A DNA stretch of 16,305 bases from Paraspadella gotoi. Taxonomy: Eukaryota > Animalia > Chaetognatha. The position numbers were made by a program, and so were the translations under genes. This document shows positions 1-16,305 of this stretch, piece by piece (position 1 is the stretch's first letter; every line of letters begins with the position of its first letter). A model generated the notes under the pieces. That model was not told the origin of the DNA and searched no databases. It saw only the letters and a list, made by a program, of their open reading frames with translations. The stretch lies in NCBI GenBank assembly GCA_051294375.1, contig JBJCIZ010000192.1:1-16305 (forward strand), written 5' to 3'.

Positions 1-96
1 TATGGGGAATGGTGCAAGGGGAAAACTTTTTTGCTGTGGCGTGATTTTATTTATCTCTTTCATGTCTTTTACTCTTACTTCTAGGAGTCAAAGAGA

Positions 97-864
97 ATGT
101 TGCAAGAGTTGCCATTGGAACTCTTACAAAAGATAGTGGGCTATCTGCCCATTAAAGAGAAACTACTACTGCTAGAGACGTCGGCTCTCTTCGACAAAGC
201 TGTCGATGTACAAATGGAAACGAAATCAACCTTTGAAATACGGCCCCGGAGACGATTAATCTTATGCTTGAACAGCGTCGACACTGACGGAAACATCGAG
301 CAAGCCCTTCAAACCTATAAAGAAGTTCATCTAATCATCGGCGCCGAAGTAACGGGAATTCCTGACCGCAAGCTAGCCAAAAGAGTGGTCAAGTTCATCA
401 AAAGGGTCACACACAAGGGGAGACATCGGTTCAAGATGGTGGAGTTGATGGGACGGCTGGGGAGTTGCCCATGCACATGGGGAGAGATCTTCAAGGGGAC
501 AGAGTCAGTTGTTCTTACCGACGATCAAGAGCCAGTAACCTTATGCCAAATGGGACAGGAAAGTGAAAGAGAAGCCTGTTTAATCTACAATGGACGGGGA
601 TTTTTGTCAGCAATGCAAGAAGTCCAAGATTCCATGGGGCCAGAAGTTCGGTTTCTTCTACGCGGAGATTTGATCAAATGTGATTTAATTCTCCCAATAG
701 CGGATGCCATCAAGGCCTTCGACGCCATCCACTGGTTTGACGAGGATATGGTCCCGCGAGTGGTCCCGAGTTTCAAGTTTGGCATCCCAAGGGAAATGTG
801 CTGTAATTATTGTGAAGAAAGGAGGCCCAAGGCCCATAAGGAAGCTCGTGATCTACTCTTTTGA
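97..864 (+). CDS. F-box protein (N-terminal F-box, unrecognised C-terminal domain), 255 aa
   Basis: N-terminus LQELPLELLQKIVGYLPIKEKLLLLETSALFDKAV fits the F-box pattern LPxExLxxIxxYLxxxxxxxLxxxSxxF; intact ORF preceded by acceptor-like TCTTTTACTCTTACTTCTAG (AG 83-84). Confidence 0.8.
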   Translation: MLQELPLELLQKIVGYLPIKEKLLLLETSALFDKAVDVQMETKSTFEIRPRRRLILCLNSVDTDGNIEQALQTYKEVHLIIGAEVTGIPDRKLAKRVVKFIKRVTHKGRHRFKMVELMGRLGSCPCTWGEIFKGTESVVLTDDQEPVTLCQMGQESEREACLIYNGRGFLSAMQEVQDSMGPEVRFLLRGDLIKCDLILPIADAIKAFDAIHWFDEDMVPRVVPSFKFGIPREMCCNYCEERRPKAHKEARDLLF

Positions 865-1004
865 TGGGGCAACAAATACTCAACTTCTTATGTTTTAGTT
901 ATCCATTTTTTTTATTTTTGTTTGTTGGTTTGTTCGAGTTCCCTTATGACTTTATTTTTCGTACTTACTCTTATAAGTTAATAGTAAATAGAACCAAGGG
1001 TAAC

Positions 1005-1511
1005 ATGGCCATTTCATGGGACGCCTTATGGGGATTGGAGGTCGACAAGGGGGAGGAAGATTTTCTAGCGGATTTAATTAATCAACAACCTCAACCCACG
1101 GGGGAATGGACAAATATGGAGCAACCAAATGTGTCAAACCTGGTCACCATGACAAGCAGTACTCAAGTTACCACCGTAGCCTCCCCTGAGGAGTCAAATC
1201 AAGGAATCACCGAGACAGACAATCCTGATTCTCAACTTTTCAGATGCGGGATTTGTGATGAAGCATTTCCCAATATCCATGCTCGAAGCTCTCACACTAG
1301 GGTTCACAAGCCCAAGTGCTATGAGTGTGGACTGAAGAGTTCATCAAGACACGCTCATCTCATTCATCAGTGGAATGAACATCCAAAGAAATACGGCTGC
1401 AAGTTTTGTGGTTATAAAACAAATTCCTTAACCGAAATGCCTTTCCACATTCTCAATCATGCAGAAATGCAGCCCGTGGCTGAAATGGTTTACGTTCATA
1501 TGGAGGGATAG
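1005..1511 (+). CDS. C2H2 zinc-finger protein (3 fingers) with acidic N-terminus, 168 aa
   Basis: FRCGICDEAFPNIHARSSHTRVH, KCYECGLKSSSRHAHLIHQWNEH and YGCKFCGYKTNSLTEMPFHILNH (nt ~1239-1460). Start placed at ATG 1005 (MAISW) because the upstream in-frame stretch is a T-rich spacer. Confidence 0.85.
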   Translation: MAISWDALWGLEVDKGEEDFLADLINQQPQPTGEWTNMEQPNVSNLVTMTSSTQVTTVASPEESNQGITETDNPDSQLFRCGICDEAFPNIHARSSHTRVHKPKCYECGLKSSSRHAHLIHQWNEHPKKYGCKFCGYKTNSLTEMPFHILNHAEMQPVAEMVYVHMEG

Positions 1512-1683
1512 GAATGGGGAACTTGATTCTAGAGAGGAATAGAAAAACGGGGTGAAGCCAAGGGGACGTGTTAAGAATTTTGTTTCACTGTTAATGATTT
1601 TTATTCTTTCATTGTATTGTTAAATATTTAGGTAAAAACAAAATTGAGTTAATGTTTTGTTTCTGTTGATTGTTTTAGCTAAG

Positions 1684-2229
1684 ATGTCGAGAAAAGTTAT
1701 GTGGGGAGAGGGCTTCTTGGACAACCGATGTGGCAACGTCATCGTCCGCAACCTCCGTGTTCAAGCAACCAATGAAGGGGAGAAAGACCCAGGGGAACGG
1801 GTTAACCAGATCCTGCAAGCCATGCAGACAATGATTTACCTGAAGGAATGGGAGGAAGAGACCGACATATTGCTCAAGTTGTGGAACCAGAAAGGGGGAG
1901 AAAAACTGGATGACTTGTCCAAGCTTCCAAGAAAAAAGAACCAACAGATCAAAAGAACATCTGCAGCCTTCAATGAGGCTCGTCAAGCATGCACTACCAA
2001 AGACTTAGGCACACTTGTCAAACATGCCGTTGCCCTCACAGGACATATTGTGGAACTCAAATACAAAAGAAAAGCAAAGTTCACAGACGAGATTGGACTG
2101 TTCATCCAACATATTTTGTCTATCATGAGGAAACCAATGGGGGATAATAAGGGGGATACTGATGGTCCAGAGAGTAGTGAGGAGGATTCCATGGGGGGTG
2201 AGTCATCCGACTCAGTGACTGTTGAATAA
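1684..2229 (+). CDS. Hypothetical helical protein with acidic/Ser-rich tail, 181 aa
   Basis: Intact ORF with GC/purine content like its neighbours, between AT-rich spacers; ATG 1684 is 5 nt after TTTTGTTTCTGTTGATTGTTTTAG (AG 1677-1678). No family recognised. Confidence 0.65.
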   Translation: MSRKVMWGEGFLDNRCGNVIVRNLRVQATNEGEKDPGERVNQILQAMQTMIYLKEWEEETDILLKLWNQKGGEKLDDLSKLPRKKNQQIKRTSAAFNEARQACTTKDLGTLVKHAVALTGHIVELKYKRKAKFTDEIGLFIQHILSIMRKPMGDNKGDTDGPESSEEDSMGGESSDSVTVE

Positions 2230-2410
2230 GTCAGAGGGTTAACCCAACAACGTGTTAGTTTGAATTCTATTGTTAAATTAAAATTTTTATTGTTAAATAT
2301 TGTTAAAATTTTAAAATTTATAAGATTTAGTCTTGCTGTCACTAGAATTTTTTTCATAATTCTTGAAATTTAATTGTTGCATAGTTAACTTTAGTTACAG
2401 GTCATGCACA

Positions 2411-3682
2411 ATGAATTTTAATTGGGAAAACCTGGAAGAGGTTAATGAACTGAGGAAGAGAATACGTTCAATGGAAGCTGAACAATCGGGACTGAAAAGC
2501 TGGTTGAACAAAGAAGTGGAAGAAAAGACTCGGCTTAAGATCATCCTGGACAATGAAGAAAGAGAAAGTAAAAGACTTCGCCGAGAATTGGAAAAAGAAA
2601 GGCAAGATGCTCACCGCATGAGACAAGTGGTTGTGGAATCAACTGGGGGCATAGAATTCCAAGCGGTCAAAGAAGATGGGTTTGCAATCGTTCCAATAAG
2701 AGAAATTACGGAGGAGTTACGAAGGGGAATAGAAGCGGATATTCTTGTTGGAATTTTAAAAAATAAGGGAGTGTACGAAGATGTGGTGATGGAATTAAGG
2801 GATTTTCAGGATATCCCAGCAAATGCTTTTGAAAATCCAGGATTTACCCGTGGAATCCCGTTTACCATAGAGGATAAGGAAATGGAGCCTTTATTAAAAT
2901 CACTCCAGAAGGACTTTGATATTACTAAATATCACAATCAGAATGAGGCGCTGAATCTGAAGACAAACCAACTACAGCTGAGGGAGCACCAGCTAAACCT
3001 CCGGGAGGAGGATCTTAAGAAAAAATCCCAGGTTATCCTTAGTTATATGAAGGACGAGCAAATGACTTTCCTAAACCAACAGAGGGATAGATTCAAGGAG
3101 ATGTGGAATGCGACTTGGACGTATAATGTGGTTGCAAAAAACCCGGTGGTTCCCTTTGAAAGAAAGAATAGTATTTCTCCAATTAGGTACGAAGTGGACG
3201 ATTATGGAAATGGGGCTAAAAAGGGGGATAGCAGTGAAGGGGTAAGAGTTAATGAAGAAAAAGATGGACCTGAGCTACAACTGGCGGTGAATGAAGAAGA
3301 GAGAGAGGAGTTTGAGACGAGCATGGGGATGTTAATGGAGGCAACTGAAGAAAGCCTCTTGAGCACTTTAAAGATCTACCAAGAAGCGGCAGATTGTCAT
3401 ATAGATGTCAGCAACCAGCTAAGTTCTTTCTTAAAGTATTGTGTCAAAAAGAAAAGAACTGGAGAAGAAATATTGCCATTCAAAACTTATATGCGGAAAC
3501 AACTCATTTGCCGAAAGTGTTATTGTACTCATGTCCGCCACTTGGATCCCATGTGCAGCAAAATGTGTTGTAATACTGTCCGCTGTCGCTATTGCTTGCA
3601 CCCCTACGACGGTCCCAAGAAATGTCAATGCAAATGTAAACATGCCCAGTCCTTCTTAACACACGTGATGGCAAACTTTTAG
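2411..3682 (+). CDS. Coiled-coil protein with C-terminal Cys/His-rich putative zinc-binding domain, 423 aa
   Basis: E/K/R/L-rich heptad-like segments (LEEVNELRKRIRSMEAEQ..., LNLKTNQLQLREHQLNLREEDL); C-terminal CRKCYCTH...CSKMCC...CRYCLH...CQCKCKH; ATG 10 nt after TTACAG (AG 2399-2400). Confidence 0.75.
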   Translation: MNFNWENLEEVNELRKRIRSMEAEQSGLKSWLNKEVEEKTRLKIILDNEERESKRLRRELEKERQDAHRMRQVVVESTGGIEFQAVKEDGFAIVPIREITEELRRGIEADILVGILKNKGVYEDVVMELRDFQDIPANAFENPGFTRGIPFTIEDKEMEPLLKSLQKDFDITKYHNQNEALNLKTNQLQLREHQLNLREEDLKKKSQVILSYMKDEQMTFLNQQRDRFKEMWNATWTYNVVAKNPVVPFERKNSISPIRYEVDDYGNGAKKGDSSEGVRVNEEKDGPELQLAVNEEEREEFETSMGMLMEATEESLLSTLKIYQEAADCHIDVSNQLSSFLKYCVKKKRTGEEILPFKTYMRKQLICRKCYCTHVRHLDPMCSKMCCNTVRCRYCLHPYDGPKKCQCKCKHAQSFLTHVMANF

Positions 3683-3894
3683 AGTAACTCATGGGGATTT
3701 TCTAAGGGGTTTTGCCAAATTGGGACACTGCAGGGCGTAGAACTACTCTACGCGGATATTCTATTATTATTGCTATTCGTATCAATACACTGATTGTGAT
3801 CAATTACATTGTCTAATTTCGATATTACCAGTAGTAAAAATCCTTAGTTCCTTTGTTTCATGTATTTTTGTTATTTAAATTCCAGTTTTACCCA

Positions 3895-5586
3895 ATGGAA
3901 ATTTTCCCGAATATTGATATTTTAAACTGTTTTGAGGCAAGGAGCCTTGATGAAAACTCAATAAAAACTCTCCAACAAGAGGACCCGAATATAGCCTTAC
4001 TAAGAAAACACGTGGAGGAGCAAACGGCTCCAAATTGGACTCTCAGTGGGCTGAACGAGTACAGAACGGTTTTTAAGAAACTACAAATCAACGACGAGAT
4101 AGTATTAAAAAGAAATCCTAACGGTGAAGAGGTTCCGCTCGTCCCTGAGAAGATAATCCAACAGGTACTTTATTCGGTTCATGGTGGGGCATTTTCTAAT
4201 CATTATGGGTTAACTAAAACATATTTAAAGCTACAGAGCAAATGCTATTTCCCGAGGATGATGTATAGAGTCGCAGAGTTTGTTAACTCTTGTCGTAAGT
4301 GTATAGAAAGAAAAATACCAGCTCGTGAAACTAAGGTAGAAACACAACCTATTCCATTTGAGGTTTTAGAAATAGGGGGCGTGATTTCTTATGACTTTAA
4401 GGGACCCTTGCCGCCGAGTGAAAAGAGTTCCTTATATCAAAGTAAAAATAGGTTTGTCTTAAGTATAATTGATTTTGCCTCTCGTTATGTCATAGGAACC
4501 CCTACTCCTACAATGGAGGCGGAAGTTGTTGCAGAAGTATTATTAAACGTATGGATACCACGATTCGGGGTTCCTCGCAAGGTAATTTCTGATCGTGCTC
4601 GGAGTTTTACGGGGAAGGTTATGAGGGTAGTTTATGATACTTTAAAAGTAGAAGTCGCGTTTACGGCGTCTTATAATCCTCAATGTAATGGCTTAATTGA
4701 ACAAACCAACCGTCATTTATCTAGTTTGCTAGCAGTGGTATTAGAAAATCATATTTATAGTTGGCCTCGTTACATTAATACTATTTTTAGTGCATATAAT
4801 GCAACGCCGCAATGTACAACTAAACTTTCGCCAAATTATATAGTTTATGGTCGAGAATTAGTAGAACCAATTGATTTTATTTTGGGTAGGTTCCGTGAAG
4901 GCGGGCGAAAGGAGAAAACGATTTACGACGAGCTGGAGGACCGAATAAAACTGCGCACTAAGGCCCTACACCTCCTGGAACTAAGGTACGCCGAGGCAAG
5001 CGAACGGGAGATTTCGAAATCTAAAGAAAAAGCTAATTCGTCTGTATTTCTAGTTGGAGATATGGTAGCCTTTAGGCCACCAGTAAAGCCAGGAAAGCTT
5101 GAGAGAAAAATGGAGTTATGTCACCAAGTAATTAAAATATTGTCTCCGTCGACATATGTAATCAAAAATTTAAATACAGGATTTGAAAGAATAGTAAACA
5201 GTAGAAGATTAAGGGGTTTAGGGCCACATAACGGTATTATTGATGAGCACTTAAACATCTCAGGGAGAGAAGACATGGGGGAGCGACCGACCACGGAGGC
5301 CACGCCCTTGCAGCAAGTTTCGTACGACGATACCGCTGATGAAGACTCGGAGGAAAGTAACGGGGAAGCCGGAAGAGACGAAGAAACGATCCCACTTAAA
5401 CAGGTGCAATGTAGAACTGAGGAGGGAAAAGCAATAAGACAGTCAGATGTCGAAATAAGCAAAATTATTATAGTAGATAAAAGCCTAAATGTTAATAAGG
5501 AGGCTGCTGCAACAGGGAGAACGGATGGTGGGGCTGGACAATATAATTTAAGGAGACGAGTGAAAAAAATTAATTATAAACTATAA
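3895..5586 (+). CDS. Ty3/Gypsy/Ginger-type DDE integrase, stand-alone ORF, 563 aa
   Basis: HHCC zinc domain (H-GGAFSN-H...CRKC); rve core SYDFKGPLP, IIDFASRY, ISDRARSF, YNPQCNGLIE with exactly 35 residues between the second D and the E; YNATP..TTKLSP motif; degenerate GPY/F-SH3-like region (FLVGDMV...KL...STYVI); basic C-terminal tail. Confidence 0.95.
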   Translation: MEIFPNIDILNCFEARSLDENSIKTLQQEDPNIALLRKHVEEQTAPNWTLSGLNEYRTVFKKLQINDEIVLKRNPNGEEVPLVPEKIIQQVLYSVHGGAFSNHYGLTKTYLKLQSKCYFPRMMYRVAEFVNSCRKCIERKIPARETKVETQPIPFEVLEIGGVISYDFKGPLPPSEKSSLYQSKNRFVLSIIDFASRYVIGTPTPTMEAEVVAEVLLNVWIPRFGVPRKVISDRARSFTGKVMRVVYDTLKVEVAFTASYNPQCNGLIEQTNRHLSSLLAVVLENHIYSWPRYINTIFSAYNATPQCTTKLSPNYIVYGRELVEPIDFILGRFREGGRKEKTIYDELEDRIKLRTKALHLLELRYAEASEREISKSKEKANSSVFLVGDMVAFRPPVKPGKLERKMELCHQVIKILSPSTYVIKNLNTGFERIVNSRRLRGLGPHNGIIDEHLNISGREDMGERPTTEATPLQQVSYDDTADEDSEESNGEAGRDEETIPLKQVQCRTEEGKAIRQSDVEISKIIIVDKSLNVNKEAAATGRTDGGAGQYNLRRRVKKINYKL

Positions 5587-5673
5587 TGGAGAATATAAAA
5601 CAGTTATGTTCAATTTAATTCATAGCAGTGAGTTAGCTTAGTAACTTAAGTCGTTGTAACCTTACCCTACCAG

Positions 5674-5893
5674 CTCTCTAAAAGAAAAGGAGGTAATCAT
5701 TCTTCACTCACGATCGGGGGATAAGAAAAGGAAGAAAATCCGCGCTACCGCCGCAGCGACTGTAGCAGCAGCAGCATCAGTAATAAACTTTTCTCGAAAC
5801 TGAAGGACACGGAATAGAAACGGAGATAAACGCGGCGGCGACTCACCCTTCGGCAAGAACAGGTGCCGATGCTTGGAAAAAAAAAAAAATTGA
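5674..5893 (+). pseudogene. Possible small basic exon interrupted by one TGA
   Basis: Acceptor-like CCTTACCCTACCAG (AG 5672-5673), then a GC-rich frame SLKEKEVIILHSRSGDKKRKKIRATAAATVAAAASVINFSRN*RTRNRNGDKRGGDSPFGKNRCRCLEKKKN*; no ATG. Confidence 0.25.
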
Positions 5894-6079
5894 TTAATTA
5901 ATCTATAAATAAATGATTAATTAAAAAATGGATAAATGATTAATTAAGCAATGAAAAAATGATTGGGAGAAATTCGACTACTAATCTAAAGTAAAATGTA
6001 ATGAAATATAATTAAGTATATTTCTGGTAGAGAATATCCTTTTTAATTTAATGTACTTTTAATTTCAAAGTTAATTTTA

Positions 6080-6122
6080 ACGCTGATAAAGACTCGAATA
6101 TGAAGAGTCGAAACATGTCCGT
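6080..6122 (+). ncRNA. Minimal type I hammerhead ribozyme-like motif (Penelope-like), core variant G8>A
   Basis: ACG-CTGATAA-A-GACTC-gaatatgaa-GAGTC-GAAA-CATGTC-CGT: stem I ACG/CGT, perfect 5-bp stem II, palindromic ACATGT helix III, GUC cleavage triplet; AATAAA follows. Confidence 0.5.
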
Positions 6123-6283
6123 ACATAAATAAAATCATTGATGAAACTATTTTCAAACTTTGTTAAATTTAATTTTAAATTGTGTTCTTTTTAATTAGGA
6201 AAGAAAAATAATAAAGGGATAAAGAAAGTTAAAACTTTTGATGAAAGACTATTAATTCTTTCTTTTTTTGTTTAAAATTATCA

Positions 6284-7465
6284 ATGATGGCGGAATATAT
6301 TACAGCAGAAAATAAAAATATAGTAAATCGATTTGTCTGCCTAATAAAGCAGGAAAAAATTAATGAAGCCTTCGAAATGGCGTTTGAGGAAGGGCCAACT
6401 CTAAAGGCTGTGCATATTGCTATAGAATGTAACTGTGAATCATTACTTCAGAAACTAATAGGAGGGGGATGGGATCTAAATGAGGCACGGGAGTTTGATC
6501 GTAACCGCCCTATACACGAAGCCATTAACTATAAGAGAGTTTCTATGTTTAAGCTGCTTTTGGGAAGTGGAGCTTCTTTTAGGAAGGGGGATGGATCGGG
6601 GAATACAGCTTTAATGAAACTATTTCAAATGCCCTGGGACGAGAGAAGTGAGAAAATGTATGAGATTCTAGAACCGTTACTACGTAAGGATGATTATGGT
6701 AGATATAATTATCACGGCGACTCAATTTTACATATTTTAGTATCAAACAATTCTATTCAATCTCCAGCCACCGTTCTGTCTATGATTGATAAGGGCGCCG
6801 ATATAAGAAGGAGAGACGCTTATTTGCAAGATAATTTTTTGATAAAATGCTTAATAAAGAGAGACGAAACCTTCATGATTACTATATTAGATGGGTTGGA
6901 AGAGAGAGGGCTAAAGATTAATATCCGTGGCTCAGCGGGAAACCCAGTTCTCCATCGGGCTATTATTGAGGAAAAGAATGCAGTTATAAATAGGATTTTA
7001 GAGTCAGCACAAACCAAAGTAAATACTGAAAATAGTAGGGGACAAACGGCGTTATGGCTGGCAGCCAAAATGGGTAACACTCAATTAGTACAAGACCTAT
7101 ATGAGAAAGGGGGAAGCCTGAATGATAAGGCCTTGATTGACTGTGGTTCCACCTCAAGAACCCCGGTACATGCAGTCGCCGCTAAATTTAACCATCTTTT
7201 ATTGAGTATCATTATTAAAGAATGGGAAACTGAAAGGGGGCTTGGTAACGCGGTGAACTGTGACCCAGGCCGAATAGTTAAGGATCTTAGAAATTTATGT
7301 AAAATTAAAATTAGAACAAGCTTATTACGAGCAAATCAAGGTCGAATGCTCTTTTCTAAACATTACGATGGGCTCCCTCTTCCAGAGAGGCTTAAGAAAT
7401 ATATCAGGATGCCTGGTAGAATGGGCTTAGTAAATTGTAATACGTTAAGAGTAAAAGGTGTTTAG
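6284..7465 (+). CDS. Ankyrin-repeat and SOCS-box protein (ASB-like Cul5 substrate receptor), 393 aa
   Basis: Multiple ankyrin repeats (RPIHEAI, GNTALMKL, GDSILHIL, GNPVLHRAI, GQTALWLAAKMGN, RTPVHAVA); C-terminal BC box KDLRNLCKIKIR plus Cul5 box LPLPERLKKYI (nt 7277-7405). Confidence 0.9.
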   Translation: MMAEYITAENKNIVNRFVCLIKQEKINEAFEMAFEEGPTLKAVHIAIECNCESLLQKLIGGGWDLNEAREFDRNRPIHEAINYKRVSMFKLLLGSGASFRKGDGSGNTALMKLFQMPWDERSEKMYEILEPLLRKDDYGRYNYHGDSILHILVSNNSIQSPATVLSMIDKGADIRRRDAYLQDNFLIKCLIKRDETFMITILDGLEERGLKINIRGSAGNPVLHRAIIEEKNAVINRILESAQTKVNTENSRGQTALWLAAKMGNTQLVQDLYEKGGSLNDKALIDCGSTSRTPVHAVAAKFNHLLLSIIIKEWETERGLGNAVNCDPGRIVKDLRNLCKIKIRTSLLRANQGRMLFSKHYDGLPLPERLKKYIRMPGRMGLVNCNTLRVKGV

Positions 7466-7753
7466 TAAAATTCTTATTGTTATTATTACAATTTATTCCC
7501 CGTCATGATCAGATAATAATTTTTAAAATAAACATATTTTAACTACCGTCAAAGTATAATTCATCCATTCACGTAAGAATAATATTTGGATATAGTTTAA
7601 TTAGTTTATGGTTCAAACAATAGCATAGCAAACTCTTGTTAGACATTTTACCGCTTGGTTTAAATAAAAATTGGGTTGTCTCTATTAATCTGTTTGTTAG
7701 AACAGTAAAAAGATTACTACTTAGTTACGGAAATGCTAACTTAAACCTTTCAG

Positions 7754-7965
7754 ACATTCAACGGAACCACGCATGGATAAAGGCGTTGATCATCAAGGGG
7801 AACATGAACAAGAGGATTGAAAGCATTTTGGCGCCGAACACTGCACTCACGGTGCAACGACTAAGAGGGAGATGACGTGAGTCACGGCGAACACAGCGGC
7901 GGACAAACGCGGAATATTTAATTGAAACTGAGCTGCGACGAATAACTGGCGAAAAAAGAAGATAG
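7754..7965 (+). pseudogene. Small Arg-rich exon with one internal TGA
   Basis: Branch-like GCTAAC plus TTAAACCTTTCAG acceptor (AG 7752-7753); frame IQRNHAWIKALIIKGNMNKRIESILAPNTALTVQRLRGR*RESRRTQRRTNAEYLIETELRRITGEKRR* covers the GC-rich island. Confidence 0.35.
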
Positions 7966-9240
7966 CGTGACCTATTATTGTTGCCTCAAGCTACGAAGTC
8001 CTCCCTCCTTGGGGGAATATTGTAAAAATAGTTACATTATGAGATTATTACTTGATCGTTATTTGAATGTTACTAAATTGGGTAACCCATATTTTATAGG
8101 ATAATATTTTCCAATACCCGAAAATAACCTCCAATTCCATCCAATTGAATTGTTAATTGTTCTGGTTCGCTCGGGTAAGGTGCAAAGAATCAATTAGATC
8201 AGTTAACGCCCGTTTATTACTCCTTGTCTGCTAAGTAAAACTGTTAGTAGAGTCAGTCTTTTGTTTTATAATTCCTTGATGATAACAACGGGAGAAATAG
8301 TACAAATAGTAACGAATTAATAAGATAATGATGTAGATTTCACACGTTTTTTGATCAGTTGGTTAGCGTCATTATGATAAATGAAATTTCTTTTATCTCT
8401 GAAGAGGAAAGATCAATCAGTTTTTAATTTACGCCGTGAACCATTATGGATTTTTTATGGGTTGAGTAAAGGATACTCAGCTTGTTTTCATCTAAATACG
8501 ACTTTTGGTTTTAATTCTACATGATACGACTGATTTTGTGATTTTCTGTGATTATTAATAAAAAGTGAACTATAGCCATAGTAATAGGTTTAAAATAATT
8601 ATAATCATTGACTTAAATTAAAACCTCTTTGGTTAATATGATTATAATAGTTAATATTATACTACTATATAGAGTTAACACTAATAATTAAAACATAAGC
8701 TTAAATCTGTTTAAAACATGTAGCTACTGAGGAATACTCTAAAATTTCAAATTATTGGTTTAATTAATAAAACAAAATATGCTATACTATACATATGTAT
8801 ATATATGAAGGTAAAAGATGCTCTTTTTTTTTCTTAGGGAAAATATTCCAGGTTCGCTCGTGTTTAAGTTTAGTTCGTCCAGCTCCAGTCTATCGTTATG
8901 GAACACATATTCGTTCTGAGGATCTATTTTAATGCATTAAAATTAAATTATTATTATTTAAATATTCTTATACCAGAATTTAACTGATTAACTGATTAAA
9001 CGTTTTTGAGGAAACTCGATGCCAATATATTATTAATCTTAAGTATAATTAATGAGTAAGAGCCATCTGGGAACTTTTTTTTTGCGCGGAATAATACACC
9101 GGTTAAACGTGTCGATTTTTTTTTGCTTTACGGTTTTGCGAATGTAAATTTTCTCTTCATTTACAATACAAAAGTGTAGTATAAGGTTTTAATTTTATAT
9201 TATTAAGTTTTGGGAATGTTAATAATTAAAGGTCCGCTCC

Positions 9241-9406
9241 CGTTGCTTTTCACATTTTGGCTTTGCAAATTTATAAAAAACTTTTCGGCACGTCTCATCG
9301 TTGCTTCTCAGCATTTTGGCATTGCGAATTTATCAAAATTTTTTGATACGTGTCTCGTGGCATTTCGGCACCTTGGCTTTGCTAGTTTATCAATTTTTTT
9401 TCCCGT
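9241..9406. repeat. Three diverged tandem copies of a ~57-bp unit
   Basis: Units start at 9241, 9299 and 9356 and share CGT(T/G)GC...CA(T/C)(T/C)TTGGC(T/A)TTGC...TTTAT.AA. Confidence 0.75.
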
Positions 9407-9418
9407 ATTTACAACAGT

Positions 9419-9421
<3 letters not shown>

Positions 9422-9461
<40 letters not shown>
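9422..9461 (+). repeat. Poly(A) tract (40 nt)
   Basis: Uninterrupted A run. Confidence 0.95.
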
Positions 9462-9463
<2 letters not shown>

Positions 9464-9738
9464 ATAAAAATAAATAAATAATATATTTTACTTTCGGTAA
9501 CGGAATACTACTGCCGGCGTATGTGGATGCTTTTTTTTTTTTTTTTTTCGTCAGTTGTAATTAATTAATTAATGGTAAAAACTTTTTATTACTTTACCAG
9601 TGTCCTTTTCCATTTTGCGTAATGAAATAGCTAATATACTCAAGTAGAGAAGTATCTTTTATTTTTTTTGTTAGGCAACCTACTGTATTAATTGTAAAAT
9701 GTTTTCTATTAATTTATAGAGTCAGTCCTGATACTAAT

Positions 9739-10737
9739 ATGGCGTCTTGGCCAGTACCGGCTGGAGCGGAGGACGAACTTGAATGGGAATTCCAAGAAAC
9801 TTTGCGAATCGCGATTGAGGCAAGTCTCCGAGAAGTGCCACATCAACCTCAGATAGTATTCAATAACGCGGAACAAACCAAGAGGAATTCTGGAAAGGGG
9901 CGCCAAATGGAATTGGTGGAAGAAGGGACTCACGAGCCAACATATGGAATCCAGACAGAAGGGGCCGCACAAGGAGAAGAAGAGACAACGGTCCGGCCAC
10001 AAGCGCCGATCTTTACCTTGGAGGAGATCGTTGAAAGGGGTGTGGACGAGTCATTCGACCCTTTTGAACTCAGGTGTCTAATCTGCCTTGATCTGGCCAG
10101 AATTCCGGTGATGATGAAGGGCTGCAAGAAGATCCTCTGCAAATCGTGCATTGATACGTGGACTGCCGGCCACGTTTCATGCCCTCACTGTCGGCGTCGT
10201 AACCCTGGCTACATAAGTACAGATGAATCCTTTGTAATAGATCTAGTAAAGGAAGTTGATGAAACAAAAGAAAGGGTAAAGAAATGGGGGATTGAGGAAG
10301 GAAAAAGGAGGGAAAGGCAACAAAGAGAGGGGCGACTCGTCGACGCTGAAGCTCAGACGGATCAACGAAAAGAGCTTCAACAAAGAGGGAGACGGCTCGT
10401 CGACGCCATAGCTCAGACAGATCAAAAACGTCAACAAGGGGGCACCCATCAAAAGGGGGAAATTCGAGTCAACGCTACGAGACCTAACAGGGGGGACTCG
10501 CCGGAGACACTTAATAGGAGGGCCAATGCTTTCATGTCTGCCCTGGACTCATCTCTAAACCAGGCACCTGCCGAGGAAGTTCTAGTTTACGACGGCCTGC
10601 GCACTCAAAACCGGCCCACAGCGGAATTTGTTTCATCTTATCGCGAATTACCAGAGCAGGGGGCGGAGACGGGGCTGTTGCTAACGACACGGGAAATGCT
10701 GACGAGACATCCGCATCAGCCACGCTGCAGGTTTTGA
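9739..10737 (+). CDS. UIM + RING-finger protein (putative E3 ubiquitin ligase), 332 aa
   Basis: UIM-like EDELEWEFQETLRIAIEASLRE (nt 9769-9834); RING-like CLIC-x12-CKKILCKSCIDTW-x6-CPHCR (nt 10075-10191); acceptors at AG 9673-9674 and 9718-9719. Confidence 0.85.
   Translation: MASWPVPAGAEDELEWEFQETLRIAIEASLREVPHQPQIVFNNAEQTKRNSGKGRQMELVEEGTHEPTYGIQTEGAAQGEEETTVRPQAPIFTLEEIVERGVDESFDPFELRCLICLDLARIPVMMKGCKKILCKSCIDTWTAGHVSCPHCRRRNPGYISTDESFVIDLVKEVDETKERVKKWGIEEGKRRERQQREGRLVDAEAQTDQRKELQQRGRRLVDAIAQTDQKRQQGGTHQKGEIRVNATRPNRGDSPETLNRRANAFMSALDSSLNQAPAEEVLVYDGLRTQNRPTAEFVSSYRELPEQGAETGLLLTTREMLTRHPHQPRCRF
10318..10437 (+). repeat. In-frame 60-bp tandem duplication inside the RING gene
   Basis: QQREGRLVDAEAQTDQRKEL / QQRGRRLVDAIAQTDQKRQQ; DNA lines 10321 and 10381 align in register. 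Confidence 0.85.
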
Positions 10738-10912
10738 AAACAGCACAAAGCTTAATAATAAAAAAAAAAAAATATATATATATATTTTATTATTAAAATA
10801 AAAGTAAATAGTCAATATACTAAAATGTAAAATTGAAAGTGGTAACGTGGTAAATGGGTTAAGGTAAAATGAAGAACCCAGTAGTAATTATAAAAATGAT
10901 ATAAATTTTTAG

Positions 10913-11111
10913 GTTGTACCACAATGTGACAGAGTTCATCCATGCGGCGACCACCATCGGTGAAAGCGGAAGGGCGGTGACGGTACACGCGGTATTGGCA
11001 AAAATCTCTGATTGCCGCTTCTGCAACCACGCGCCGTGCATGGTGGAAGTAAGGGGGAAAAAGATGAGGACGCAGCCGCATACGCACCTCCAATGCTATA
11101 GGTTCGTGTAA
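10913..11111 (+). CDS. Small Cys/His-containing coding exon lacking an N-terminal ATG
   Basis: AAATTTTTAG acceptor (AG 10911-10912) then GC-rich open frame LYHNVTEFIHAATT...CRFCNHAPC...HTHLQCYRFV*. Confidence 0.4.
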
Positions 11112-11328
11112 ACTAATGTGAATTGCAGTGTTTATCCAGTTAACTTCATTACGTAATATAGATAATATAAAGTAAATAATACAAGTATATTTTGTGAGAT
11201 GCCCATTGCCCAGTATTACTGTACCTTACTAAGTGTTCATTGTACCTATAAGCATATGGACGAATCAACTTAGTGTCATAAAAATTGCATAAATATAATA
11301 AAAATAATAAATCCTTTATTAATCATAG

Positions 11329-11686
11329 CCTTTGCTGCGGGCGATTTCTAAATCGGACAACGCTGCAATTTGATGGAGGAAATTGTGACTGTGGGATAGC
11401 CTTGATGTTCAACCTAAATGTACTTCCGGCGACGCAAGAAGAAAACAAGGGGCTCCGTGCGGCGTATTCTTACAAAAAAGACTTATGGCTAATCCATAGA
11501 GTGCATCACGCACTAAAGTCTTACTTCCGTCTCCTAGAAACAAGTAATCGTTGGGACGTGGAACTTAAAGTATTAAAAAGGGGAAGAGAAGGGTTACGGC
11601 GATTCCTCGCTCAAAATCATAGTGGCCTCATACAAGACCTTAAGGAACTAGTGGCTGAGGCGGAGAGAGAGGAAAAGGGGATTTAA
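11329..11686 (+). CDS. Hypothetical coding exon (~118 aa; internal ATG at 11405)
   Basis: TCCTTTATTAATCATAG acceptor (AG 11327-11328) marks the switch from AT-rich to coding-like sequence; frame LCCGRF...CDCGIALMF...EAEREEKGI*. Confidence 0.5.
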
Positions 11687-12565
11687 GGGGGTACCAGCTG
11701 TAGTATAGTTACCATTTACTCGATCCTTGAATTTTTTTCTATTGATCAAGGCATGTAGCCTGCTCTGTTCACTTTTATAATTGTTACGTTGCCATTAAAA
11801 ATACTTCAATCAGAATATTAATTGTACTGTGAGCAGTTGCTTACTAATACATTCCTGTTCTTTCTTCTCTTTGTAGCTTTGCTGTTATTGTTGCCTATTG
11901 AGTTTCGAGTTTGATTTTATTGGTTCGCATATTAATTTAAATTGTTTTACTGTTACTACAATATTGAAAATAAATTTCAATTAAAATGTGTCCGGTTTAG
12001 TACCAATTTGAGTTATCAGACCTACTTAATGGATAGATTGGTACGTTAGTCAGATTAGTATCATCAAAACCCGAATTTTGAGGTAAAAACCTAGACAGAT
12101 TGCTGAAGTAAAAGTCGATTGTTAAACCACGTCAAAGTTTATTGTGTGACTTCGCTGACGGAATGATGAACAGGAGATCAACGGTTAGGCGAAGTACATA
12201 GCCTAATATTTAAAAATAAATTGCCGGAAAAACGATTTTTGAATGTTAGTGAGGGGGAGAGGGAGAGATAAGAACATTCACTAAATATTAAAAAAATCGT
12301 GTACTTCCCAAACAAACCATACAATGATTTATAAACTGTCTGCTTCAACGTGAACAAGGAGAAACCTGTAAATAGTTTGAAATATACAACAAATTCTATT
12401 GTATTATGAATTACCAAGTTACGACCTGATGACTTACCTAAGTACCCTCACAATACCAAACAACAACTAACAGTAAAATCACAGTACCAAGAACAATACA
12501 AACCAAGTGAATGTGACGTGAACCTCAGACCCAAATAACATAAAGCTCACAAACTAACCTACTAG

Positions 12566-12751
12566 CCAAAAGTAACCCTGCTACATCCGGATTTCCCTTC
12601 TGACGTTCGTGATCAAATTCATGGGGGAATATTGCTTCTACTGGGAAAAACCGTGGATGCATCGTCCAAACAAAAGGACGTCGAGCAATTACAGAGTGGC
12701 CTCAAGAAAACTTTTGGGGAAGAAAAAAGGGGGGAAATGGTAAAAGGTTAA
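12566..12751 (+). other. Possible small ATG-less exon (61 codons)
   Basis: After CTAACCTACTAG, open frame PKVTLLHPDFPSDVRDQIHGGILLLLGKTVDASSKQKDVEQLQSGLKKTFGEEKRGEMVKG*; acceptor is weak. Confidence 0.25.
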
Positions 12752-13008
12752 TTATAATGGATACAGGGTGGTCAAAAAAAAAAAAATATATATTATATAT
12801 TAATAAATATTTGATTAAAAATAGATAAATATTAAATAGTATACTATAAATAAGATTAAATTAAATAAGAATAATAAATAGAATATAATAATACAGTAAA
12901 TAAATAATTAATAAATAAAATTATAATTTAATAAATTAAATAGTACTCTATATGGATGACTAACCGTGTTAATATTAAACGAGGATCTTATATCAGAGAT
13001 TTTGATGT

Positions 13009-13018
13009 GGGAAGGGAA
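13009..13018 (+). other. Polypurine tract (plus-strand primer site)
   Basis: GGGAAGGGAA directly abutting TGTTATAAG, the proposed LTR start. Confidence 0.65.
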
Positions 13019-13776
13019 TGTTATAAGAAATTGTTAATAGCATGATTTTTGATATCTTTTACATATATCATGATATATAAGCAGTTATAATTTGTGTAAT
13101 TTCTTTTCAGGTTTGTATAAAACTTTTGTTTAGAAAGAAAGAGGAACCTTTTATAAAATTATATATATTAATTAATTAACTTAAAATCATATGGTTTGGT
13201 TAATATAAATAATATAAAAATAGTAAAGAAAAAGACTATAGGAAGAAATAAGATTATTAACGAAGATTAAGTATAATTGGGTATTAAATTGGTTAATTTT
13301 GCCACATCATAAAAAGATAGGTGAGATTGACGAATCCAAGGGAGCAGAGGAATTAAAACGTTAGAGATAATAAGATAGAAAAAGAATTGATCAGGAATTT
13401 GTGAAATAACGAGCTTAGAGATTTTCTAAACTCATACAGTGAACGAAAGAAATGCTATTTGTAAGGTTTCATCAAGTGAGATAACATTAAACAGAGAGAT
13501 GTTGTGGAGCTTCTCTCTACTTGTTAGATAAAGCCAAATCAGAAAGCAGAAATGATCAGGTTACCAATAAGAATTCAGTATAAATTAATTGAGCGTAAGA
13601 AGGGATCTTTAGAGATTTAGAAATTAGATTGAAATCAGAGTAGTAGCGTAAGAGTTCAGGCAAGGAGAAACTGAATAGTTTCAAGTACATCCCCGTAACG
13701 CAATTATCGAAACGGAATATAATTATATATTATCTACTATGGATATGTGCATAAAGAACGAGAGCTCAGTAGGGCT

Positions 13777-13811
13777 TATAAAAGGAGAGGGAGCTGCTTG
13801 AAAGGACAGTC
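13777..13811 (+). promoter_or_regulatory. LTR core promoter: TATA box and initiator-like element
   Basis: GGGCT-TATAAAA-GGAGAG at 13777-13783; ACAGTC (Inr-like, A at 13808) 31 nt downstream. Confidence 0.55.
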
Positions 13812-14125
13812 CTCATTTCCACTCTGATTAGGGACAATATATGCATACCCCACTTCTTCTAGGGCTGAAGTTAATATTTGGGTAGTGTGTTACTATAAAA
13901 TAGTAACAATTTATAAGGTTAACCTAAATATAATTGGCCAGAATAGTACCCCAAGTACTATGGTGGTTACTACTTAGTAAAAGAAGTAGTGTAACATAAT
14001 TACAGAGTGTATAAACCAAACCCTAAATGGGAAACTGTAAATAATTAATATTCGTACAACTAATTCCTGTTCCTCTTTCTATATATTTTTGTGTAATTAA
14101 TTGTGGTCTGGCTAGATTGGATGGT

Positions 14126-14131
14126 AATAAA
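14126..14131 (+). terminator. Candidate LTR polyadenylation signal AATAAA
   Basis: AATAAA downstream of the TATA box, followed ~20 nt later by CA and a GT-rich TTGTGTGTCT. Confidence 0.4.
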
Positions 14132-14518
14132 GTAGAATTATAGTAATATATCATTGTGTGTCTACTATAGAGACCAGCTAGAATATGAGATTTTGGTTAG
14201 GCTAAGGGAACAACAGGGAATTGCTTTTAGATACCAAGTGATGCCCTGGGCTAGGAACTGATAGGGCCTTGAGGGACTTCTTCAACAGGTTAGCCTGGAT
14301 AAGGTTTAGGAACTATATATAACCCTTATTAGCTAGAATATAAATATCTATCATATTATAATCTGTGGACTGAGATATGAACTAAACTGGTGCACCAGTA
14401 TACGTATAAGGTATAAAGACTCCTGACTTACCGACACCAAACGGGTGAACCCCGGGCTCTAGGAATATTAAAACAACATATAATTTCTAGAACAGTTCGT
14501 CCTTGAAGTCGTCGTGAC

Positions 14519-14912: not shown

Positions 14913-15283
14913 TCTTGTTCTGACGTTGAAATTTTATTGTTTTTTTCTCCTGTCTTCTTTTCTTTCTTTCTTTTTTCTTTCGTTCTTTTTTAATTTTTTT
15001 TCGTCCTCAGTTTTTTTATTTGTTTTTCTCATTCTTTCTATTTTCATTTTTTCCCCTTTTTTTTTCTCTTTCTTATTTTGTTCTTTAATTTTTTCTCTCA
15101 AGACTTTGCATTTAGACACAGTGCGCGCCCTCTACGATGAAGGAGCCATTGGGTGCGATCGTCATAAAAGGAAAGGGTCACAGAGAAAAGAAGGATATAG
15201 AGAAGGAGAGGATTGGATAGAAAGGAATAAAGAAAGGAAAATAAAAGAAGAAAAGAGAAGATAAAAGTAAGAAAAGAGAAGAA
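14659..15283. repeat. Low-complexity host flank: (TTTC)n-like pyrimidine tract followed by purine-rich tract
   Basis: TTTC/TTCT runs ~14659-15097; A/G-rich runs ~15166-15283. Confidence 0.85.
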
Positions 15284-16305
15284 AGTTCACGGAAGCGAAG
15301 TGCGAAGAAATTAATCGGGCGAAGAATAATGGAATTGTGAAATGTGAACTCAGTGTAAATCATGAGGTGAAAACTCACGAGCGTATTCTCTCTCTCGTTC
15401 GCTCTTTCGCTCCCTTAACTTATCAGTTCGCATTCTCTCGCTATCTTCTTTTGGTGAATTTTCTAATAGAATCAAGTTACTAAAACATTTCAAAAAAATA
15501 TTAAAGCTTGCATTTTTACTGTTGGGACAGGCTAACTATACTAATATGGGGGTAGGGAATCTGATGGTAAGGTCAAAACCGTCGAAACCTCGATATCGCT
15601 TGACTACCAGGCCTGAATGAGCTTTTTAGCTTTTTTTAGAATTTCCCATAATTTTTGTAGTTTATTATTATCCAACTGAAATAAACAATAATTAATTAGT
15701 TTTTTATTCTTTTTTTTACCCATTTAAAGTACAATTAATGATTTACTTTAATATTTTTTCTTCTTAGCCCTAAACGACATAATACCTCAAAAAAAGGTTT
15801 TTTTAAAATTTTGCTAAAAATTTATTCTGATTTTTTTGTAATCACTATTTTAAATTGGCAAACATTTAATTCAGGAATAATAAAGTCTTGGTTTGTCTTG
15901 GCATGGTAAGTTTTATTTATCTTCATAGTAAATTATGGACATTTTTGAAGAAGTCATATCTTCATCAGCATAAATTAAAAATTTTTGGAACATGGTTTGA
16001 GAAGAAAAAAAAGAGGAGAGAGAGTGAGAGAGATGGAATTGTTTCCTTCAAAACCATGTTTCCCAAAACTTTTAATTTGCACTGATGAAAACTCTAGTAT
16101 TCACCAAGACCTATTATCACAGTATTATTTTTTAATTATATTAAAAAGAAATTCATATATTAAGTAAAATTGATGAATAAAATTCAAGCTTCAGAATTGA
16201 GTCAATGTTAGGACAGGAGAAAGTAAGGGAAGGGAAGGAGGGTGAGTAAATTTGAGATTGGTAAAAAAAAAAAGAGAGAGAGATCAATACATTTGGCAAT
16301 GTACA

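Follow-up and report, generated by a model that had tools for sequence, protein, structure and literature searches.

A Gypsy-type integrase was found to stand alone in the window (the whole stretch of 16,305 nucleotides analysed), in the middle of an array of eight ORFs that all lie on the plus strand and are each intronless at the DNA level. Four ORFs precede it, while an ankyrin-SOCS gene, a RING-finger gene and an ORF of 93 amino acids follow (Table 1). This stand-alone layout was real and apparently extended across a clade of related integrases. The interpretation that we favour, at a probability of roughly 0.55, is that the array belongs to a large mobile element, a Gypsy-type LTR retrotransposon whose integrase has been split from Pol, has its own start codon and is made from a spliced message.

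Table 1. Features of the array and its surroundings, with positions in the window.
Feature	Position	Strand	Basis or remark
Acceptor-like TAG of ORF1	ends 84	+	12 nt before ATG
ORF1, 255 aa, F-box-like N-terminal stretch	97..864	+	Pfam F-box E 0.028, below cut-off
Stretch missing in deleted form	351..9781		X3 and X5; joint 350>9782, short side 28 nt
ORF2, 168 aa, C2H2 zinc fingers	1005..1511	+	weak C2H2 matches
Acceptor-like TAG of ORF3	ends 1678	+	5 nt before ATG
ORF3, 181 aa, no family	1684..2229	+	
Acceptor-like AG of ORF4	2400 (or 2384)	+	10 nt before ATG
ORF4, 423 aa, charged N-terminal part, Cys-rich C-terminus	2411..3682	+	
T-rich tract and CAG acceptor of integrase gene	3866..3885	+	predicted; 9 nt before ATG
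Integrase, Gypsy-type, stand-alone, 563 aa	3895..5586	+	Pfam, profile and structure-model matches
Intron 1, GT-AG	4165..4495	+	X9; takes out codons 91-201 (HHCC, first D)
Intron 2, GT-AG	4582..4889	+	X9; takes out codons 230-332 (second D, E)
Intron 3, GT-AG	4986..5263	+	X9
Intron 4, GT-AG	5404..5673	+	X9; takes out integrase stop codon
Intron 5, GT-AG	5863..7753	+	X9; whole ankyrin-SOCS gene skipped
Acceptor-like TAG of ankyrin-SOCS gene	6198	+	
Ankyrin-repeat and SOCS-box ORF, 393 aa	6284..7465	+	Pfam
Acceptor-like TAG of RING gene	9719	+	19 nt before ATG
RING-finger ORF, 332 aa	9739..10737	+	Pfam
Two further GT-AG introns	10731-10912, 11102-11328	+	X9
ORF8, 93 aa, no family	11405..11686	+	
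Candidate polypurine tract, 22 purines ending G6A3, then TG	12716..12737	+	putative, from sequence
Candidate 3' LTR, about 1.7 kb	12738..14475	+	putative; boundaries tentative

The integrase occupied a stop-to-stop frame of 3838–5586, in which the first ATG (3895) opens 563 codons, and judged by its sequence the ORF is intact. Pfam recognised Integrase_H2C2 (1e-13) and rve (6.7e-9), and the protein could be divided into an N-terminal extension, an HHCC region, a D-D-E core, an SH3-like C-terminal domain (CTD) and an acidic tail. The zinc residues (H96, H103, C133 and C136) and the catalytic residues (D167-D233-E269) were unchanged in 16 of 16 aligned proteins, the second D and the E being separated by 35 residues (D-D35-E). 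Among solved structures, the family profile matched Ty3 Gag-Pol best (E = 1.6e-26), with profile positions 17–448 aligned to residues 1020–1451, a span that opens in the N-terminal extension and reaches the SH3 domain. The predicted structure of the integrase (pLDDT 57) matched foamy virus and Ty3 integrases, and in this model the acidic tail was unstructured.

The excerpted text of PMC8632968 assigns the SH3 fold to residues 369–433 of Ty3 integrase, and the mature protein therefore starts near Gag-Pol residue 1012. The start methionine of the family studied here maps about 8 residues before that point. The motif IKTLQQEDPNI therefore falls within the N-terminal extension domain; an earlier note on this DNA had read it as the linker between RNase H and integrase, which is not upheld, because the profile aligns there with Gag-Pol 1020 onward, at the start of the mature integrase. 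At the other end of the protein, the SH3-like domain was present despite the missing literal GPY/F tripeptide, which occurred in 0 of 18 clade proteins (three of them C-terminally short) versus 89 of 104 Pol-type rows. A simple pattern test for YPYY before the zinc finger found [YF]P there in none of the 18 clade proteins, and Pfam matched no OTU or Ulp1 domain C-terminal of the integrase.

A word-based search returned 21 matches, 17 of which were 44–53% identical and 314–620 aa long; below this close group there was a gap down to Pol-type proteins at 24–29%. When longer proteins were searched, all 19 long matches were 21–30% identical (weak evidence according to the tool), and none was a Pol-fused match above 30% identity. 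The earlier note had allowed that other copies might carry RT, RNase H and integrase contiguously; relatives of this kind were not found, the Pol-fused matches lying outside the clade. Two deeper members that also stand alone, P0049 and P0054, came from a profile search of 1.8 billion representatives; the next relatives in the databases were Gypsy Pol proteins. The long proteins P0046–P0070 were rejected as a sister group, being gene models with at least two Pol copies whose scores had been summed.

Phylogenetic analysis with FastTree retained 167 of 194 proteins, after 27 in which the core was not covered had been dropped, and placed the integrase and 22 others on one branch (SH-like support 99; 18 clusters at 90%). 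None of these 23 rows was fused to Pol and none had more than 50 residues before the integrase; outside the branch, 117 of 144 rows had more than 150 aa upstream of it, and 20 of the 144 were short, integrase-only calls scattered beside Pol-fused kin. The clade relatives come from short contigs (1.3–5.8 kb). A search for the locus of a close relative produced 17 metagenome loci, all of only 23–32% identity, and the ORFs of eight of these and of one viral locus were ordinary RT-RNase H-integrase pieces of Gypsy elements or unrelated. P0054 and P0049 had no match in viral contigs, nor had the clade alignment in prokaryote genomes. These searches revealed no RT and no cargo in common for any member of the clade.

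In 21 of 23 clade rows with an N-terminus, a methionine fell between −5 and +2 relative to the family start, the starting Met of most rows being set by the gene caller's construction. In six rows the called ORF extends further upstream, and there the in-register methionine corresponds to a real ATG because it is internal to the longer call. Four of these six, from two lineages, have a glutamine immediately before the methionine, which reads as a CAG-ATG acceptor would. Among Pol-type rows, the position of the family start fell at a median of 26.5 residues after the end motif of RNase H (54 of 70 rows). From these comparisons the stand-alone integrase is probably a family trait and not damage to a single copy.

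The four ORFs upstream of the integrase had no Pfam match to RT, RNase H or protease, in agreement with the claim that the integrase sits in mid-array behind ORFs that are not RNase H, and no RT, RNase H, protease or Gag was found within the 16.3 kb window. Neither ORF3 nor ORF4 had a credible Pfam match, and ORF3 had no usable Atlas match; ORF4 was without a homologue among 5527 candidates, and the cargo may therefore be copy- or lineage-specific. The five array ORFs scanned against PHROG gave no match. By eye, ORF1 resembled an SGNH-type fold; this was dropped, its single-sequence model having a pLDDT of 40 and no match at E 0.001. The window contained no tRNA gene and no Rfam family at gathering score; by its microsatellites and spliceosomal introns the sequence resembles animal DNA. 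Between the integrase and the ankyrin-SOCS gene, a short, very high-copy repeat (6081–6168) reached a depth of about 30–40 times that of its flanks in X1 and X3, beside three AT-rich tandem copies (5880–5973), and probably represents a small host repeat that has inserted there. Before the RING gene, at 9253–9401, there were three 33-nt direct repeats, 59 and 57 nt apart, followed by 40 nt of poly(A).

Nine sequencing runs from three studies contain the region, four of which were compared: three DNA runs (X1, X3 and X5) and X9, classed as RNA by a guess of the run index, none of the nine being on record as RNA. The array was contiguous and in the same order in independent DNA runs. A contig of X1 ran about 740 nt beyond position 1 of the window, and the element therefore continues upstream. 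Two of the three DNA runs also contained a deleted form without the genes from ORF2 to ankyrin-SOCS, and the contigs of both forked or began at 323 as well, as a graph fork at the joint would give. Relative to the full form, the depth of the deleted form was about fourfold in X5 and one half in X3, and it was absent from X1. It is a polymorphic, probably non-autonomous derivative, and its joint places ORF1 and the RING gene in one element.

DNA depth was flat and low from position 1 to about 9500 and raised from 9782 to about 14430, with a diverged repeat at about 13072–14430 standing several-fold higher. Over 1–9500, the best-supported rows listed variants only at 43, 222 and 4827 (208 weaker rows besides); two of the three fell within ORFs and both were synonymous. 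In the ORF8 region (11399–11854), X1 contained a diverged sister copy with 38 differences in 458 nt. The candidate polypurine tract (PPT) lay at the edge of the higher-copy repeat, inside a 40-codon ORF on a purine-rich strand; the window contained two purine sites with a G-tract and TG, and 18 purine runs of at least 15 in all. The candidate LTR included a TATA-like box near 13777 and AATAAA at 14126, ended near ...AAAACA, and had no second copy within the window. Taken as sequence features, the purine tract and the higher-copy repeat suggest a PPT and a 3' LTR. Outside the element, a very high-copy host repeat (15233–16305) enclosed a hairpin with 51-nt arms (15961–16089), possibly a MITE.

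An element without RT might also present this appearance, namely a cut-and-paste transposon rich in cargo, or an element resembling a DNA virus, in which the Gypsy-derived integrase serves as transposase, working in the manner of Ginger or Polinton and having a separate origin. We consider this rather unlikely. It would account for the absence of RT from the window and for the stand-alone integrase of the whole clade; Ginger and Polinton are precedents, and DNA transposons too have internal deletion forms. However, the purine tract and a 3' repeat of about 1.4–1.7 kb are more LTR-like than a terminal inverted repeat (TIR) of 40–270 bp, the start of the integrase matches the Pol cleavage boundary, and the motifs of Ginger1 were absent. 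Ginger1 and Ginger2 carry TIRs of 40–300 bp with TGTNR ends and a specific target-site duplication; no inverted pair of this type appeared among the 25 longest listed for the window, and the scanned ORFs of the window had no match to polymerase B, packaging ATPase or capsid.

In the excerpted text of Bao et al. 2010 (PMC2836005), Ginger1 is defined by YPYY, GPY/F, OTU/Ulp1 and TIRs, at a size of 2.6–7 kb, and Ginger2 also lacks YPYY and GPY/F. The array resembles both groups, as presented there, in that its Gypsy-like integrase, with H2C2 and DDE, stands alone and that splicing occurs within the integrase region. It differs in that those elements, of 2.6–7 kb, have TIRs and one transposase, whereas the unit here exceeds 12 kb and has many genes; moreover, splicing builds the ORF in Ginger but destroys the integrase ORF here (PMC2836005, same excerpt). 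By its lack of YPYY, GPY/F and OTU/Ulp1 the integrase is not a member of Ginger1, a separation made on motifs, the tree having held database matches only and no labelled Ginger or GIN sequence. The proposal of an LTR/Ginger intermediate was thus not backed by the motifs as far as relationship to Ginger1 is concerned. As with Polinton/Maverick, going by excerpts of PMC6431247 and PMC2836005, a retroviral-type integrase is found alone in a multi-gene element; unlike Polinton/Maverick, every long ORF here lies on the same strand, and protease, as well as polymerase B, ATPase and capsid, was unmatched in the scanned ORFs.

The favoured reading, of an LTR retrotransposon with a separate integrase gene, also concerns how that gene is expressed. 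As the earlier note had stated, the integrase lies behind a phase-0 acceptor: TTCCAG, whose last base is 3885, stands in frame before TTT TAC CCA (9 nt) and ATG. Comparable sites precede other ORFs of the array. Four of eight ORFs were preceded, at no more than 25 nt from the ATG, by a YAG that satisfied the strict T-rich criterion, whereas local shuffling, repeated 5000 times, gave 0.94 on average (P ~0.01, for a threshold picked after inspection). The distances from acceptor to ATG for ORF1, ORF3, ORF4, integrase and RING (12, 5, 10, 9 and 19 nt) represent all phases, and phase 0 at 3885 is therefore not special.

Analysis of X9 identified seven GT-AG joints on two contigs, all with good donor and acceptor context, and none of them in the three DNA runs. 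In this one run, therefore, the plus strand was shown to be transcribed and spliced at canonical sites. One intron (11102–11328) ends at the acceptor ahead of ORF8, so that acceptor 11328 was in use. The 983-nt contig with five introns starts no earlier than 3877 and may begin 9 nt inside the putative intron ahead of the 3885 acceptor, which we infer to be used by splicing. Its five introns excise HHCC and all three catalytic residues and bring a stop at codon 107; in no frame did the spliced form conceal an ORF of more than 106 codons from Met. Because the integrase frame is lost on splicing, functional protein can come only from an mRNA that keeps four introns. Other X9 contigs crossed the acceptors at 84 and 1678 unspliced, and X9 therefore contains read-through RNA or DNA. 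X9 had no cover over the ankyrin gene, which was not counted as evidence. A joint at 1326–1370 (43 nt, GT..CA, with a 5-nt repeat) was rejected as an intron; in the X9 contig it appears as a 43-nt deletion (1327–1369) between 5-nt repeats that shifts the frame of the zinc-finger ORF. Joints 3877>13162 and 12226>13677 were disregarded, having sides of just 21–22 nt.

Two options had been put forward for the integrase: separate translation, or a Pol rebuilt by splicing, in which splicing would link an upstream RT-RNase H exon to 3886 in phase 0 and skip the cargo. The first is very probably correct, being supported by the conserved in-register methionine, a clade without RT or RNase H fusion, and acceptors of mixed phase. 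The second appears improbable. It would explain why the acceptor is in phase 0 here and, by the Gln-Met pair, in two other lineages, why the break falls just past the end of RNase H, and why the locus is heavily spliced. Yet an acceptor abutting an ATG forces phase 0; given sister acceptors in all phases, phase 0 at this site is a one-in-three chance; an initiator methionine would be unneeded, and was kept in 21 of 23 rows; and X9 contained no joint that linked 3886 to another site within the window. The mixed phases fit better if each gene receives a non-coding leader than if Pol is rebuilt.

It is very improbable that the stretch is instead a single immobile locus, a former element fixed in the host or domesticated, whose main product is a spliced non-coding RNA. 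Its presence in nine runs from three studies, the flat and low depth over 1–9500 with few differences, and a spliced form without a long ORF could be understood in this way, and domesticated integrases do exist, such as Imagin. However, Imagin has lost DDE, according to the excerpted text of PMC12863088, whereas HHCC and DDE are invariant here; the deleted form in some runs and the diverged 3' sister copies point to a family of copies, and these multi-copy signs at the 3' end likewise set the array apart from domesticated integrases of the GIN1/Imagin type. That ORFs 1–4 interrupted an ordinary Gypsy Pol by inserting into this copy alone is scarcely credible: ordinary Gypsy fragments also yield short integrase-only calls, but those cases are scattered beside Pol-fused kin, while the clade has no fused member and an in-register methionine, and the arrangement was contiguous in independent DNA runs.

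If the array is part of an LTR retrotransposon with a separate integrase, as we favour, gag, protease, RT and RNase H would probably lie upstream of the window, with the PPT and 3' LTR at 12716–14475. The integrase mRNA would, with high probability, arise when a non-coding leader is joined in cis or in trans to the 3885 acceptor and the four internal introns are retained, so that a start codon and a splice acceptor would replace protease cleavage in providing the integrase. The accessory genes may be expressed similarly, through acceptors of their own. Hypothetically, splicing-out of the catalytic core could act as an off-switch for the integrase, and the F-box, SOCS and RING genes could act on host ubiquitin ligases. 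Tentatively, and with somewhat less confidence than disbelief, the array could represent an undescribed, giant, virus-like lineage of animal Gypsy elements in which the Pol polyprotein has dissolved, at least eight genes are fed by acceptors, among them F-box, ANK-SOCS and RING adaptors of ubiquitin ligases, and the spliceosome switches the integrase off by excising its catalytic core.

The array shares with Ty3/Gypsy (Metaviridae) its type of integrase, with HHCC, D-D35-E and SH3-like CTD. Of the paired LTRs, primer-binding site, PPT and target-site duplication of such elements, the window showed a candidate PPT and one candidate LTR. Unlike Ty3/Gypsy, its integrase is not the C-terminal part of a PR-RT-RH-IN polyprotein, the literal GPY/F is missing, at least seven accessory genes are present and the window holds no RT. 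Foamy and complex retroviruses express an enzyme gene from its own spliced mRNA, use alternative acceptors for accessory genes and retain introns for the full message; in foamy viruses, however, it is Pol as a whole that is split off from Gag, and integrase is not parted from RT. The giant planarian Gypsy element Burro, in the excerpted text of PMC6431247, is similarly large and carries RING, ankyrin and other ubiquitin-related cargo. According to that excerpt, Burro encodes PR-RT-RH-IN and most of its cargo in one polyprotein of ~4,900 aa, whereas the array has separate short ORFs behind acceptors (PMC6431247). In the excerpted text of PMC13524379, which surveys Gypsy elements with env, a split integrase was not seen. 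The layout is a variant within the Gypsy/Ginger kind, and no published description of it was found in a literature search whose coverage excluded subscription journals, supplements and Repbase.

Gypsy and retroviral integrases reach the new DNA copy because they are part of Pol. A lineage with a free integrase gene, if true, would show that the link between integrase and Pol can be broken. It would also provide a living model for the origin of Ginger transposases, Polinton integrases and GIN genes from, or into, LTR elements. Annotation pipelines that demand RT-RH-IN in one frame would miss such an element, and the splice sites within the integrase would offer a testable control point for transposition.
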